Sequence record: MK373786.1
Direction: 5' to 3' (one strand)
DNA: 64,000 nt
From: Escherichia phage vB_EcoM_R5505
The stretch's first letter is position 1; each line of letters opens with the position of its first letter. The notes beneath the pieces were generated by a model. The model saw only the letters and a program-made list of their open reading frames with translations. It was not told the origin of the DNA and made no database searches. This document shows positions 8,360 to 61,085 of the stretch, piece by piece. A program made the position numbers and the translations under genes.

Positions 8360-8647
8360 TTACAAAAGATTTTTAGCAATAATCTTGAGATGTGCTGCAG
8401 AAATGTGTTTAGCTTTAAACAACGCAGTTTCTTCGGCAGGAGAGATAACGATTGTAGCACCATCCTTTTTAGCAGACCACCCATCACCTAGGTAAACAGT
8501 ACCTTTGATTTCTTCGCCATCAACCAGACTAATCATTGGTTTACCTTCTCGTCCTTTATTTGCTTTAATAACTTCAGAAGTAAGAGTAGCTTCGGTAATG
8601 GTAGAAACCGGGGTAGTTGTAGAAGTAAATTCTTTAAATGTTTTCAT
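8360..8647 (-). CDS. ipI: internal protein I (IPI), injected anti-restriction protein
   Basis: 95-aa ORF MKTFKEFTSTTTPVSTITEATLTSEVIKANKGREGKPMISLVDGEEIKG... recognised as T4 IPI; adjacent to 57B as in T4. Confidence 0.9.
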   Translation of the reverse strand: MKTFKEFTSTTTPVSTITEATLTSEVIKANKGREGKPMISLVDGEEIKGTVYLGDGWSAKKDGATIVISPAEETALFKAKHISAAHLKIIAKNLL

Positions 8648-29629: not shown

Positions 29630-32770
<3,141 letters not shown>

Positions 32771-56317: not shown

Positions 56318-56350
56318 AATGGGGACCTTTCGGTCCCCATATTTTTATTT
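56318..56350. terminator. bidirectional terminator between gene 54 and alt.-3
   Basis: Hairpin ATGGGGACC-TTTCG-GTCCCCAT followed by ATTTTTATTT. Confidence 0.7.
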
Positions 56351-56635
56351 ACGGAATGAAATGAAAGCAGAAACTGAAGCAACTAAACTGTCTTCAATAT
56401 AAACTTCAATTTTTACCGGAGCTTCTGACTCGAATTTACCTGTTACTACACCTTGGAAAATACTTTCAGTTTGTTCTGGCTTTGAAAAATTTTCAGAAGG
56501 AAAAATTCCGAACTTTTTATCTGTTCCAAAAATTTTGATAAATTCATCATAAACTGCTTCATTAAAAGCATTATCAGCAGGAATAACGCCTTCAACTACA
56601 AGTTCTTGACCTAAAAAGCGCAAAGAAGATTTCAT
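56345..56635 (-). CDS. alt.-3: hypothetical protein, T4 alt.-3 position
   Basis: 96-aa ORF, ATG start with SD GAGGAACAC; synteny only. Confidence 0.6.
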   Translation of the reverse strand: MKSSLRFLGQELVVEGVIPADNAFNEAVYDEFIKIFGTDKKFGIFPSENFSKPEQTESIFQGVVTGKFESEAPVKIEVYIEDSLVASVSAFISFRK

Positions 56636-56657: not shown

Positions 56658-56687
56658 AGTAAGACTACTATAACACAACACGAGGGA
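56658..56687 (-). promoter_or_regulatory. sigma70-type promoter for alt.-3
   Basis: Minus strand: GTTTACA-N17-TATAGT ending ~20 nt upstream of alt.-3 ATG. Confidence 0.4.
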
Positions 56688-56695
56688 CTTGTAAA

Positions 56696-58753
56696 CTACA
56701 TCTTGAACTTTTTAGACATTCCGTTGATGTTAACCAAAGAAGCCAAGATTTGAGAAACTTCGTTTTCCTCTTCTTTTGATTCTTCTACAAGGAATTGATT
56801 AAATCCAGCCATTGGACGAACTTCACCAGTTTCCATTAAATGGTCGCCATCATATACTGATTCTTCTAATTGTTCAGAAGGAGGAACGATTGTACCTTCG
56901 ATTAGATACTTGTTATAAGCAGTTTCTTTCATAAAGTACGTACTTACTTTATTAATCTTCAGTAAAATTCCACGCGGTAGAATAACTTCAGCTTCTGATG
57001 GAAATCCTGATAAATGACCTGGAACGATAACTTTGATTCGCTCAGCTCCTTTAATTACCATACCCACGCTAGTTTCAGCATCTTCAATGGCATATGTAGA
57101 ATGACTACCCATATGCATTAAATCTTCTGCATCAACGGAACCTTCTCCTTCGCCAGAAAATACTGCGCCGGAATCATCTAGAGCCATATAGTTTTTACCA
57201 TGCTCACCGAAGATATTTGGTTTAAGTGATGTCGATACGAAGTTCTTGAAATAGAACATTTTGTTTTCAATGTTATGACGCAAAGTTTTAAAGGTAACTT
57301 CTTGTCCACGGTAAAGTGTAGTTCCTGGAGGAAGAACTGATCCTTTGGCAAAGGCAGAATCCAACGTCTCGATGTGCTTAATAGCTCGTTCCATATATTC
57401 TTCACGGGTAGAATCTGGTTTACCCAAAAGGAACGAGTTCATTTCAACATATGAATCTGCACAATAATCTTCAATTACATCAGATTCAGCTTGGGTTAAT
57501 CCTTTTGGAGTTACTTCGGTGCTTGCGTATTCATATGCCTGGGCAGCAGATTCATTAATCAATTTATAAATGCCATTCATGACAAATTGAATAATAGCTG
57601 TCTTTTCATCTGGCGTAGCTTTAGAACCTTTAACTAAATCATTAATAATTTTCTTAATAACATCAAAGCTATTAGAAATATTAATGTCAGCAAGATCGCT
57701 TAAAATTTTATCAGTTTTATAATCAAAGAATTCTTTATTCTTTAAATATTCTTGAGAACCTTGATATGTTATATCGCTCTGCAACTTGATAGATGGATCA
57801 CGTAAACGTGCATGGGCTAATGCAATATGATTTCGGAAGTTTTCTAGTTCATAATCGTTAGATTTAAAACGAGAAGCACTTCTCATACCACCGATAGCTC
57901 CTTTGCTAAAGTTTGAACCAATCTGGATAACCCCGGAGTTCATCGGACCTTCTGCTTTATATACCGGAACTTTAGATTCAAACTCTTGATATTTCTTGGC
58001 AGCGAAGCTATCACCCTGAAGTGAAGCATCAACAGTAGAATATTGAGCTTGTGCTGCTAATCGACGACTAATTTTAGTTTTCTGAATAACAGCTTGATCA
58101 GTGCGCTTATCATTTTCTAAAGCAATAGAAGCAGCAACAGCGACAGCTTTAGGAACAGCATTACCTGTTTTAACGTCTACATAAACATCACCAACCTTTG
58201 ATTCAACTTTTGTGAATAACTCAGTTGAAATAGGAGGTACACCTGGAATGTCTTCTAAATTGGCATTTTTACGGTAAACCATAATATATGCATACTTTTT
58301 ATCATAGTCCCAGATTTCCTTTAAAAGAACATATCGACCTGCTCCTTTAGTACGTACTAAACGGTCAGCAATAACTTGCATTTGACGAGCTGCGCCATTT
58401 GTTTTACTCTTTAGTACACGGAATAAGCACGCGTCAATTTTGTACTGCTTCATTGTTTGAAGAGCAGTATCAAAAACAGCATTAATGACGCCAATTGGAT
58501 TTCCACCCAAGTTTCTAAGCTTAACCAGCGATAATTTCTCGTTGACACCTATCATTACGATATGCATCATTTTATCGCCTGGTTTAACGTTTTTATTTGT
58601 ATCACCACCAGAGGTGTATGTACAAAATCTAAATCCAGGAAGAACGCTTTCTTCACCGGCTTGAATAGCAAAAATTTGAGGTATTTTATGCTTAGGATTT
58701 AAGTTAACAACCGGCGCCGAAGCGCCGTCAAATAATTCTGTAATAAGTTCCAT
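56696..58753 (-). CDS. Alt-family ADP-ribosyltransferase paralog (occupies the T4 alt.-2/alt.-1 position)
   Basis: 685-aa ORF MELITELFDGASAPV...; R / STS / E-x-E motifs (LYRGQ, FVSTSL, SEAEVILPRG); N-terminal ~230 aa ~65% identical to downstream alt. Confidence 0.8.
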   Translation of the reverse strand: MELITELFDGASAPVVNLNPKHKIPQIFAIQAGEESVLPGFRFCTYTSGGDTNKNVKPGDKMMHIVMIGVNEKLSLVKLRNLGGNPIGVINAVFDTALQTMKQYKIDACLFRVLKSKTNGAARQMQVIADRLVRTKGAGRYVLLKEIWDYDKKYAYIMVYRKNANLEDIPGVPPISTELFTKVESKVGDVYVDVKTGNAVPKAVAVAASIALENDKRTDQAVIQKTKISRRLAAQAQYSTVDASLQGDSFAAKKYQEFESKVPVYKAEGPMNSGVIQIGSNFSKGAIGGMRSASRFKSNDYELENFRNHIALAHARLRDPSIKLQSDITYQGSQEYLKNKEFFDYKTDKILSDLADINISNSFDVIKKIINDLVKGSKATPDEKTAIIQFVMNGIYKLINESAAQAYEYASTEVTPKGLTQAESDVIEDYCADSYVEMNSFLLGKPDSTREEYMERAIKHIETLDSAFAKGSVLPPGTTLYRGQEVTFKTLRHNIENKMFYFKNFVSTSLKPNIFGEHGKNYMALDDSGAVFSGEGEGSVDAEDLMHMGSHSTYAIEDAETSVGMVIKGAERIKVIVPGHLSGFPSEAEVILPRGILLKINKVSTYFMKETAYNKYLIEGTIVPPSEQLEESVYDGDHLMETGEVRPMAGFNQFLVEESKEEENEVSQILASLVNINGMSKKFKM

Positions 58754-58756
58754 GAT

Positions 58757-60844
58757 TTATCCTTGAACGAACTTGTAAGGCATGTTTGTAATATCTATGC
58801 AAGACGCAATAATTCCAAGAGATGATTCTACTTTCTGTTTAACATTTGATGAAACAAATGATGCAAAGTCAACTCTATCTTCTATATCACCTGTCATTGC
58901 AACTACTTCGCCGGTTTCCATTAAACGGTCACCGTCATAAATTACCGATTCGGTGAGTTCTTCTGTGGTCATAACTTCAGCTTGAATGAGTTTTGTATTA
59001 TTAGACGTGGTTCCGTCATTATTAGAAGCATCAGTTATTTTATTAACTTTAACCATCAATCCGCGCGGTAGAATAACTTCAGCTTCTGTTGCTATTCCTA
59101 GACTTCCTGGATATACAACATTAACTTTATGTGCGCCGTCAATTGCCCATCCTATTTGAACTTTAACGTATTCAGGATTTTCTTTATACGCTCTTATTTC
59201 GTTTGGATTAATAGTTATTCCTTCTTCATTTTTATCAACTGTCAATTCATTACGAGCTTCTGGTTCTAAAAGACCAATACCAGCATGTGTAATTCCAAAA
59301 CGCCCAAAAATGATAGGAGTTAAAGAAGTAGATACAAAATTTCTGAAATAGAACACTTTATTTTTAACTAGCGCTTCGTATATAGGAGCAGTCATACTTT
59401 GAGCACGATAAACTGTAATGCCTTCCGGTATGCGGTCACCATTTTCAAAAGCTGAATCTAAATTATTTATAGCAGATTCAATTTCTTTTTCACTCATTAC
59501 ATCATATCGTTCTGGATTGTAACGACCTAAAAGAAGATTATTGATGTCAGTATATCCTGAACCACAATACTCTCTAATGCCGCGCTTTTGTGATGGAGTA
59601 TATTTAGAACCATCACGAGCAATAGTAATATCAATCATTGGACCTGCACCAATTCCGGAAAAGCTATAAATCATTCGTTTGAGGAATTTAGTTTTTGCTG
59701 CGTTCCAGGAATTTTTAGTTATTTCTTCCCAGACTTCATCTGGTTGCCCTTTACGAGTTTTATTATGTTTATCAAGCCAATTATCTTTATATTCTTCAAA
59801 GAATTTATTAATAGCTGCTGCGTATTTCTCTAAACATTTTATTGAAGTAGTTGGTTCATTTTTTATCGCGTTAAAAATTACATCTTTAATTTTTTCGGAA
59901 ACTTCATCAACCTCACTTTTTGAAAAGAATTTATAGTCATAGTGAAGTTCATTCGCAGTTCCTTCGGCAATAATTTTTGCTGCCTTAGTTTTAGAAGCTA
60001 ATGAATTAATTCCAAGCTTCATTTCTTCTGCTTCGGGAATTAAAGGAGCGGTAGCGGGTTTATTGAAATTAGCTGCGGTAGATTCATACTTCTGAAATAA
60101 TTCACTTTCAAATCTAGAAGATTCCAATGACTGACTTTGTGCAATTGCTCTACGGGAAATTTTAACTTTAACGATTACAGCTTGATCAGAACGTTTATCA
60201 TTTTCTTGCGCAATAGATGCTGCAATTGCCTCATTTTTAGTTACTTGAGCTCCAGTATCTTTATTGATATAAACATCACCGACCTTCGATTCAACTTTAG
60301 TAAAGAGCTCGGTACTAATTTCCGGAACCCCTGGAATGTCTTCTAGTGATACATTTTTGCGATGTATAAGAATATATGCATACTTTTTATCGTAATCCCA
60401 GAGTTCCTTAAGAAGGACGTATCTGCCACCTGAACGACTACGGATAAGTCTATCAGCAATAACCTGAATTTGTCGAGCTTGACCAGCGGTTTTAGACTTA
60501 AGAATACGAAGCATACAGGCATCAATTTTATACTGACGCATTGTTTGCATTGCAACAGTAAAAACTGAATTGATATAATTAATTGGGCTTGAACCAAGAC
60601 CTTTCAATTTAGCAATTGAACCTTTAGCAGTTAATGTAAAAGGAACAATATGCATCATTTTATCGCCCATCTTTAAATCGCGATTAGTATCACCTCCAGA
60701 TGTATAGGTACATAAACGAAAGCCTGGTTGTTCAATTGCATCATCAACATGAACTGAAAAAATTTGTGGTATTTTCTTCTTTGGGTTTAAGTTTGTAATC
60801 GGAAGAGTAGTATCTTCGTCAAATAATTCTGTAATGAGTTCCAT
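58757..60844 (-). CDS. alt: Alt ADP-ribosyltransferase (packaged, injected with DNA)
   Basis: ATG at 60844 (second of tandem ATGs) gives MELITELFDEDTTLPITNL...; R / STS / E-x-E motifs (VYRAQ, FVSTSL, TEAEVILPRG). Confidence 0.85.
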   Translation of the reverse strand: MELITELFDEDTTLPITNLNPKKKIPQIFSVHVDDAIEQPGFRLCTYTSGGDTNRDLKMGDKMMHIVPFTLTAKGSIAKLKGLGSSPINYINSVFTVAMQTMRQYKIDACMLRILKSKTAGQARQIQVIADRLIRSRSGGRYVLLKELWDYDKKYAYILIHRKNVSLEDIPGVPEISTELFTKVESKVGDVYINKDTGAQVTKNEAIAASIAQENDKRSDQAVIVKVKISRRAIAQSQSLESSRFESELFQKYESTAANFNKPATAPLIPEAEEMKLGINSLASKTKAAKIIAEGTANELHYDYKFFSKSEVDEVSEKIKDVIFNAIKNEPTTSIKCLEKYAAAINKFFEEYKDNWLDKHNKTRKGQPDEVWEEITKNSWNAAKTKFLKRMIYSFSGIGAGPMIDITIARDGSKYTPSQKRGIREYCGSGYTDINNLLLGRYNPERYDVMSEKEIESAINNLDSAFENGDRIPEGITVYRAQSMTAPIYEALVKNKVFYFRNFVSTSLTPIIFGRFGITHAGIGLLEPEARNELTVDKNEEGITINPNEIRAYKENPEYVKVQIGWAIDGAHKVNVVYPGSLGIATEAEVILPRGLMVKVNKITDASNNDGTTSNNTKLIQAEVMTTEELTESVIYDGDRLMETGEVVAMTGDIEDRVDFASFVSSNVKQKVESSLGIIASCIDITNMPYKFVQG

Positions 60845-60867
60845 CATATCCTCTCTAGTGTTTATTC

Positions 60868-60875
60868 TATTTATA
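60868..60875 (-). promoter_or_regulatory. late promoter (TATAAATA on minus strand) for alt
   Basis: rc of 60868-60875 is TATAAATA, 23 nt upstream of alt ATG. Confidence 0.55.
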
Positions 60876-60880
60876 AAATT

Positions 60881-60898
60881 AAAGGCCCGAAGGCCTTT
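60881..60898 (-). terminator. stem-loop AAAGGCC-CGAA-GGCCTTT after the 62-aa gene
   Basis: 7-bp stem overlapping the stop of ORF 60897-61085. Confidence 0.5.
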
Positions 60899-61085
60899 AA
60901 TAATCTATTGGTAAGAGAGTACGATATATTTCAAACTTTGGACCTTTTTCATAAGCATCAAAAGTTTCTGTGAATTTATTATAAGCATATGCATCTATAA
61001 ATTCAATCATGATTTGTGATACAGAAGTAGAAACATCTCCACCTTCTTTTTGAGCCACGACAATTGTTTCTAAGTAAGCTTTCAT
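60897..61085 (-). CDS. small hypothetical protein between alt and gene 30
   Basis: 62-aa ORF, ATG start overlapping gene 30 stop by 4 nt. Confidence 0.55.
   Translation of the reverse strand: MKAYLETIVVAQKEGGDVSTSVSQIMIEFIDAYAYNKFTETFDAYEKGPKFEIYRTLLPIDY

Follow-up and report, generated by a model that had tools for sequence, protein, structure and literature searches.

Two anciently diverged, full-length alt genes in tandem in the T4-related phage vB_EcoM_R5505

In the textbook view, which is based on T4, three phage ADP-ribosyltransferases take part in infection and Alt alone is injected. A 64,000-nt stretch of the genome of Escherichia phage vB_EcoM_R5505 (MK373786.1; the whole stretch is referred to as the window) carries two adjacent alt-like open reading frames (ORFs), AltA and AltB, and raises the question of whether such phages possess a second enzyme of this kind and what it would do. 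The window is about 98% identical to Tequatrovirus phages such as teqdroes, TB37 and Sf22; its alt region is flanked by the plus-strand tail genes 29, 48 and 54 and by the minus-strand DNA ligase gene (gene 30), and the pair lies between gene 30/alt.1 and alt.-3/gene 54, as expected of the T4 Alt family. We found that AltA and AltB are anciently diverged paralogs of T4 alt, each belonging to the T4 Alt family over its full length. Taken as a whole, the evidence is explained best, and with moderate probability, by two ADP-ribosyltransferases that are made late, packaged, trimmed by the prohead protease gp21 and injected, probably with different host targets.

Both ORFs are uninterrupted (56696-58753 and 58757-60847 or 58757-60844, minus strand) and are separated by 3 nt, the product of AltA being 696 aa long when read from the first of two ATGs and 695 aa from the second. 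The two proteins showed 41% identity overall in BLASTP (E = 7e-163), and a repeat search recovered the duplication independently as direct repeats 2088-2097 nt apart. Both matched phrog_802 (Alt-like ADP-ribosyltransferases) end to end (residues 1-685 of AltB and 1-694 of AltA; E = 7e-256 and 1e-272, respectively) and exceeded the gathering cut-off of 23.4 bits for the Pfam family PF03496 (ADPrib_exo_Tox), AltB with 71.8 and AltA with 129 bits. A second Pfam family, PF26846 (Tevenvirinae_ADPRT), is listed for the N-terminal part of both AltA-type and AltB-type homologs, an assignment taken from precomputed Pfam hits on these homologs, and NCBIfam held no model for either protein. The lengths of the ORFs, the E-values and the signal of selection described below rule out a chance origin of the pair. 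BLASTP, PF03496 and motif alignment thus agree with a first-pass annotation, made from the sequence alone, which had described intact tandem alt paralogs with an R/STS/E-x-E signature. Region by region, identity between AltA and AltB was 100% for residues 1-6, 66% for residues 7-238 (the earlier estimate was about 65% over the first 230 or so), 19% for residues 239-415, 33% in the catalytic domain (residues 416-620) and 34% in the last 65 residues; the common start MELITELFD noted before holds when AltA is read from its second ATG. Of the conserved ends that had been proposed, the N-terminus is strongly conserved, and the C-terminus is conserved in the motif block E-S-x-YDGDxLMETGE ... KF only. 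The central region is divergent, as claimed, but the divergence extends beyond it and takes in the catalytic domain.

The motifs YR[GA]Q, FVSTSL and EAEVILPRG are present in both paralogs, with the catalytic residues R480, S505-T-S507 and E587-A-E589 in AltA (E-A-E codons 59078-59086) and R482, S507-T-S509 and E587-A-E589 in AltB (E-A-E codons 56987-56995). In an 18-sequence alignment spanning both lineages, R482, S507, S509, E587 and E589 (AltB numbering) were invariant. The E-x-E form marks the arginine-specific type of R-S-E ADP-ribosyltransferase and, judged by these motifs, the ADP-ribosyltransferase domain of both paralogs is of the R-S-E (C3/VIP2) type and has the E-x-E of arginine-modifying enzymes. 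The preceding turn (the ADP-ribosylating turn-turn, or ARTT, region) reads S-x-[F/Y]-x-x-E-x-E in the AltB lineage (S-G-F-P-S-E-A-E in AltB itself) and lacks the aromatic residue in the AltA lineage (GIATEAE in AltA, APSNEME in T4). In C3 and iota toxins, the aromatic ARTT position contacts the substrate. The motif is E-M-E in T4 Alt, in contrast to E-A-E in both window proteins, and the mutation E577A abolishes the activity of T4 Alt (PMC11404850); the second glutamate of E-x-E in the window proteins is the counterpart of the residue mutated there.

An AlphaFold model of the whole AltB protein (mean predicted local distance difference test score, pLDDT, 73.5) consisted of an alpha/beta part (residues ~12-220), an all-helical part (240-415), an ADP-ribosyltransferase part (420-625) and a C-terminal tail modelled as disordered (pLDDT <50). 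The ADP-ribosyltransferase region (pLDDT ~80-90) matched Vis, C3bot, VIP2, CDTa and iota toxin in Foldseek searches with E-values of 4e-7 to 1e-4, the best match (E = 4e-7) reaching a template-modelling (TM) score of about 0.6 on the target, while a structural search with the model of the N-terminal domain gave no convincing match. Searches with the AltB sequence among solved structures found none, and those with the AltA sequence in the Protein Data Bank (PDB) found no solved structure of Alt and weak matches to CdtA and iota toxin. C3, VIP2, iota, CDTa and Vis thus share the catalytic fold and the R, S-T-S and E-x-E residues with the Alt proteins at 13-20% identity; compared with these toxins, the Alt proteins have in addition the N-terminal alpha/beta domain, the helical middle and protease-removed ends, as well as some 60-75 extra residues inserted between S-T-S and the ARTT turn. 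Delivery differs too, the Alt route being ejection by the phage and not a toxin translocon. The T4 enzymes ModA and ModB belong to the same ADP-ribosyltransferase clade and have the same general role in host takeover, but they are small, made early after infection and unpackaged, and they are without the Alt N-terminal domain and gp21 sites.

T4 Alt (gpAlt, 682 aa) has its domain order, the R/STS/E-x-E residues and both gp21 sites in common with the two window proteins. AltA is 70% identical to it overall (99% over residues 7-238, 30% over residues 239-410, 62% in the ADP-ribosyltransferase domain and 94% in the C-terminal 63 aa), the N-terminal 240 and about 80 C-terminal residues being nearly identical (96-99% in DNA), whereas AltB is only 42% identical to T4 Alt. 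After alt, the T4 reference has the ORFs alt.-1 (61 aa) and alt.-2 (67 aa), which the record annotates as an old duplication of the alt start. The first-pass annotation had described for T4 a full-length alt with possible remnants at the position of the second copy, and DNA alignment bears this out: alt.-1/alt.-2 and AltB are 95% identical in all aligned columns and share the same junction with alt, and the PHROG families of alt.-1 and alt.-2 matched AltB with 138 and 129 bits, compared with 78 and 71 bits for AltA. T4 alt.-1/alt.-2 is a decayed AltB. Alignment against T4 Alt, alt.-1 and alt.-2, which had been proposed as a check, revealed an arrangement in T4 that is not identical to that of the window, the second copy being broken there. 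The loss between 9-bp repeats, CTAAA(G/A)AGT, removes codons ~113-679 including the whole catalytic domain, and a single-base frameshift splits what is left (Table 1); read from these sequence changes, AltB was lost in T4 by a slip in an A-run and a deletion between the repeats. A probe for the T4 deletion junction (L001 6069-6158) was spanned in 90 of 472 related records. The identical junction is present in the natural isolates VEc20, vB_EcoM_112, ACG-C40 and SG1 and not only in T4 stocks, and the deletion occurs with either A-allele; on the basis of these records, the presence or absence of AltB is therefore a standing polymorphism and not a laboratory artefact of T4.

Whole-locus megablast matched 541 phage records, 368 of which cover at least 80% of the locus. 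The AltB core was at least 95% identical in 299 records, and about 102 more scored lower through merged AltA/AltB matches. This 60-80% identity class (102 records) was considered as a distinct AltB allele and rejected as an artefact of joined matches, the G3G7 pair being normal and intact. Counting intact copies with a 90-nt probe over the left deletion boundary was also abandoned; it gave an undercount (180 records), given the megablast word length at 90-95% identity. Prevalence was taken from the junction probe and protein searches instead, and the intact pair proved to be the majority state, in roughly 80% of related records, with the T4 state in the minority; these counts are approximate, as duplicate RefSeq/GenBank entries and several T4 stocks are included. 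The 90%-identity cluster of AltB comprises 772 member sequences. One further match was an outlier: the final 99 nt (32072-32170) of the 32-kb record MG010123.1 (Staphylococcus phage SAJK-IND) specify a peptide that matches the end of the AltB query at 97% identity, probably owing to contamination or chimeric assembly in that record.

A tandem pair occupies the same position in RB32, T2, AR1 and JS10, with 97-98% DNA identity in the Tequatrovirus examples; the pairs of T2 and RB32 show no difference of substance from that of the window, and the JS10 genes have genus-specific ends. In T2 (T2_203/T2_202) and other RefSeq records, both genes are labelled "Alt-like RNA polymerase ADP-ribosyltransferase"; in RB32 the second copy is named alt.-2 and described as "similar to alt", the AR1 record contains two alt genes, and that of JS10 contains alta and altb. 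A 2006 paper by Nolan et al. describes alt.-1/alt.-2, among other ORFs, as alt duplications and reports a full-length duplicate in phage 44RR (PMC1524935). As a genomic fact, the tandem alt pair is already known: contrary to the novelty that the first-pass annotation had seen in it, the two-gene arrangement is the majority state in Tequatrovirus and has been annotated and published. Our literature search found the duplication described but no experiment on the function of the second copy or its presence in virions.

Both genes are under strong purifying selection, with ratios of nonsynonymous to synonymous divergence (dN/dS) of 0.021-0.047 at a synonymous divergence (dS) of 0.12-0.21 for AltB (five orthologs) and of 0.026-0.048 for AltA within its own allele type. 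Between AltA and AltB, synonymous sites are saturated in every region, the N-terminal domain included (dS 1.2-1.5), from which it follows that the duplication is old and that selection, and not recent gene conversion, has maintained the shared N-terminal domain. Recent conversion was considered for that domain and rejected, since its dS is 1.5 and exact runs are only 16-21 nt long. JS10 (Dhakavirus) has the pair too, as does a more divergent metagenomic contig, and the duplication is older than the split between Tequatrovirus and Dhakavirus.

Comparison of alleles revealed a mosaic structure. In DNA, AltA and T4 alt are 96-98% identical over codons 1-240 and 89-99% over codons 616-695, with an abrupt drop to 43-70% and saturated synonymous sites over codons 241-615, where protein identity varies from 15 to 75% per 40-residue block (residues 241-615). 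This divergent cassette was delimited as window positions 58949-60130 in the comparison with T4 (L001) and JS10 (L009 1645-3729). The middle of AltA is a T2-type allele, at least 90% identical in 315 phage records, and 19% identical to that of AltB; 172 records carry the T4-type cassette at 95% identity or more. Both types occur together with an intact AltB and with a deleted one, OE5505, AR1 and G3G7 having a T4-type AltA and an intact AltB. Over its catalytic domain (residues 403-642), AltA shares 85-98% identity with JS10 alta at a proportion of synonymous differences (pS) of 0.24-0.48, compared with 30-65% identity and a pS of 0.6-0.8 in the flanks. Because the catalytic part is far closer than the flanks, these figures suggest that the catalytic cassette has been exchanged between genera and alleles. 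Distance trees of the N-terminal domain largely followed phage lineage, the two JS10 domains pairing together and the A and B domains staying apart within Tequatrovirus, while trees of the middle, ADP-ribosyltransferase and C-terminal part grouped by A/B lineage across genera. Judged from these trees and identity profiles, alt genes are mosaics whose ends follow the phage lineage and whose middle and catalytic part are exchanged. A Logan assembly, SRR24155011_2765 (L003 4001-6055), contains a single hybrid alt gene between alt.1 and alt.-3 that is AltA-type up to about nt 540 and AltB-type thereafter, with the switch in a conserved block. It is a candidate for the expected product of recombination between tandem copies, and could be an artefact of automated read-archive assembly.

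Expression signals at the locus are those of a common late unit. The late promoter that had been placed at 60868-60875 ahead of the pair is an exact TATAAATA on the minus strand, and this octamer, kept in T4 and T2 and present as CATAAATA in JS10, is a putative T4-type late promoter serving both genes. In T4 (L001 ~8515-8535), a 5-bp tandem duplication, AATAG, follows right downstream of the octamer; it is absent from the window (60850-60875) and from T2. The hairpin just upstream of the octamer is invariant in the window, T4, T2 and JS10, carries a terminator annotation in the OE5505 record, and is likely the terminator of the upstream early/middle unit. No terminator-like site was found between AltA and AltB, where the AltA stop codon TAA is followed by a 3-nt spacer and the ATG of AltB; the junction CAAGGATAAATCATG is conserved from the window phage to JS10, with CAAGG(A/G)TAAAnnATG common to the window, T4, T2, RB32, OE5505, AR1, JS10 and L004. 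Since promoter, hairpin and junction are conserved and no terminator separates the genes, the arrangement points to co-transcription of AltA and AltB and probably to coupled translation. A further exact TATAAATA occurs within the AltA coding sequence (59464-59471, minus strand), ~710 nt ahead of the start of AltB; AltB may have an internal late promoter here, or the octamer may have arisen by chance, the DNA being rich in A+T. As in T4, two adjacent in-frame ATGs are present at the start of AltA (60842-60847, minus strand). The second, which is the start annotated in T4, is favoured by its spacing to the GAGG ribosome-binding site and by the six residues reported to be removed; some records (AR1) annotate the first.

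T4 Alt is cut by gp21 after ITE-6 and LTE-619, as determined by mass spectrometry, the latter cleavage removing 63 C-terminal residues (PMC5694885), and the MELITE site with removal of six residues is also annotated in X15811. About 40 copies of T4 Alt are present per head and are ejected with the DNA (PMC9026906). Our alignment numbering reproduced T4 LTE-619 and placed LTE-632 of AltA and LEE-631 of AltB in the same column. The P1 glutamates E6 and E631 were invariant in 18 of 18 homologs, all of which had [L/I/M]-x-E at both ends. The best available evidence that AltB follows the route of Alt through prohead core, trimming and ejection is this conservation of motifs, which is indirect. The T4 internal proteins IPI-III, with their capsid-targeting sequence, offer a parallel, in that they are packaged in the head, trimmed by gp21 and ejected and, like Alt, combine a conserved targeting end with a variable payload; they have no sequence relationship to Alt, which has propeptides at two ends and a large conserved N-terminal domain.

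In the account that we favour, AltA and AltB would be made late from one transcript, built into the prohead core by means of the conserved N-terminal domain and the terminal propeptides, trimmed at both ends by gp21 and injected with the DNA, and, as the next infection begins, both would ADP-ribosylate host proteins on arginine. The conserved ends would serve packaging and processing, and the divergent helical middle and catalytic domain would set the target range; because these parts are so unlike, AltA and AltB probably hit different host proteins. The main competing idea is redundancy: both enzymes would be packaged and would act on essentially one set of host proteins (RNA polymerase alpha among them), the second copy adding dose or robustness. 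The two proteins do share family, type of catalytic motif, expression unit and processing motifs, T4 and about 19% of its relatives manage without AltB, and T4 Alt is reported, with reference to Depping et al. 2005, to modify many proteins. Redundancy of this kind is nevertheless unlikely in view of the low identity (19% for the middle region, 33% for the catalytic domain), the different ARTT turn, the strong purifying selection on each copy's own sequence and the separation of the lineages since before the Tequatrovirus/Dhakavirus split, which would be unexpected for dosage duplicates. Different target ranges are preferred to redundancy because of the ARTT turn, the unrelated helical middles and the long separate retention.

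Slightly more doubtful again is the idea that AltB is an active enzyme or core-building protein which is not delivered, and which acts late in the producing cell (like ModA/ModB) or in head assembly only. It would fit the lack of direct evidence of AltB in virions and the description of T4 Alt as a core protein as well as an enzyme; conservation of both gp21 motifs (E6 and E631 invariant) and of the N-terminal domain, together with the late operon shared with AltA and its probable translational coupling, speaks against it, and the invariant catalytic residues speak against a purely structural role. T4 and the 90 of 472 related records that have the deleted remnant only might also suggest that AltB is a decaying duplicate heading for the T4 state without a function of its own. 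This is very improbable: dN/dS values of 0.02-0.05 contradict it, the ORF is intact in hundreds of genomes and forms a cluster of 772 sequences, all catalytic and processing residues are kept, and the gene is found in other genera.

Several points weigh against the picture of two injected enzymes with different targets. We infer the packaging, processing, activity and target range of AltB, and a literature search turned up neither proteomic data from virions nor enzyme work on a protein of the AltB type; modification of RNA polymerase alpha, in particular, may well not hold for AltB. The late promoter is assigned by its match to the consensus, and the role in substrate choice that the aromatic ARTT residue may have is suggested by analogy with C3 and iota toxins. 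Moreover, T4 and 90 of 472 related records lack AltB with no obvious penalty and alt itself is non-essential in T4, so that AltB may contribute little, or only on particular hosts.

The coordinates of the genes, protein parts and signals are listed in Table 1. Downstream of the pair, the early-like promoter that directly follows the AltB stop codon is conserved in T4, and because of it the neighbouring gene alt.-3 may belong to the early genes, outside the late alt unit. A bidirectional terminator hairpin (56319-56340) separates alt.-3 from gene 54; its stem is two G-C pairs longer than in T4, and its 4-nt loop reads GAAA here and TTTC in T4, the reverse complement, as if flipped. Rfam gave no match at E <= 0.1 in the region, and all plus-strand ORFs there are at most 85 aa long and unsupported.

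Table 1. Genes, predicted protein parts and putative signals of the alt region (window positions).
Feature	Position	Strand	Remarks
alt.1	60897-61085	minus	upstream neighbour of AltA
Hairpin AAAGGCC-TTCG-GGCCTTT	60881-60898	minus	G+C-rich; after alt.1, just upstream of late promoter
Late promoter consensus TATAAATA	60868-60875	minus	upstream of AltA; exact match
AltA	58757-60844	minus	695 aa; upstream paralog; positional ortholog of T4 alt
AltA N-terminal propeptide MELITE	60827-60844	minus	gp21 site ITE-6; identical to T4 Alt site
AltA N-terminal alpha/beta domain	60131-60826	minus	aa 7-238; PF26846 Tevenvirinae_ADPRT
AltA variable middle	59615-60130	minus	aa 239-410
AltA ADP-ribosyltransferase domain	58949-59614	minus	aa 411-632; PF03496, 129 bits; ends LTE-632
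AltA predicted C-terminal propeptide	58760-58948	minus	aa 633-695 (63 aa); aligns with T4 LTE-619 site
Shine-Dalgarno AAGGA for AltB	58760-58764	minus	made of the last codons of AltA
AltB	56696-58753	minus	685 aa; downstream paralog; RB32 alt.-2, JS10 altb
AltB N-terminal propeptide MELITE	58736-58753	minus	gp21 site ITE-6
AltB N-terminal alpha/beta domain	58040-58735	minus	aa 7-238; AlphaFold pLDDT 84, predicted TM score (pTM) 0.83
AltB variable all-helical middle	57509-58039	minus	aa 239-415; predicted helices, pLDDT ~80-90
AltB ADP-ribosyltransferase domain	56861-57508	minus	aa 416-631; PF03496, 71.8 bits; ends LEE-631
AltB predicted C-terminal propeptide	56699-56860	minus	aa 632-685 (54 aa); L-E-E/S aligns with T4 LTE-619/S
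A of A5 run missing in T4	58594-58594	minus	frameshift splits remnant into alt.-1 and alt.-2
1,699 bp of AltB lost in T4	56716-58414	minus	bounded by direct repeats CTAAAGAGT and CTAAAAAGT
Sigma-70/T4-early-like promoter TTTACA-17 nt-TATAGT	56667-56695	minus	upstream TG; directly after AltB stop, before alt.-3
alt.-3	56345-56635	minus	DUF5498

A bolder proposal, which we put forward tentatively and at somewhat less than even chance, is that AltB-type proteins form a second, distinct class of injected ADP-ribosyltransferases with targets of their own, possibly defence or stress proteins and not RNA polymerase, and that the alt locus is a system of exchangeable effectors. If so, packaging ends specific to each lineage (the N-terminal domain and both propeptides) would enclose catalytic cassettes that are exchanged by recombination among alleles and even across genera, and host-specific selection would account for which natural isolates have AltB and which lack it. 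The alt cassette mosaic is a small addition to how T4-like phages diversify their host-directed effectors. Most close relatives of T4 encode a second full-length Alt-type enzyme and, if AltB is injected and has targets of its own, the first seconds of host takeover would differ between T4 and phages such as T2.

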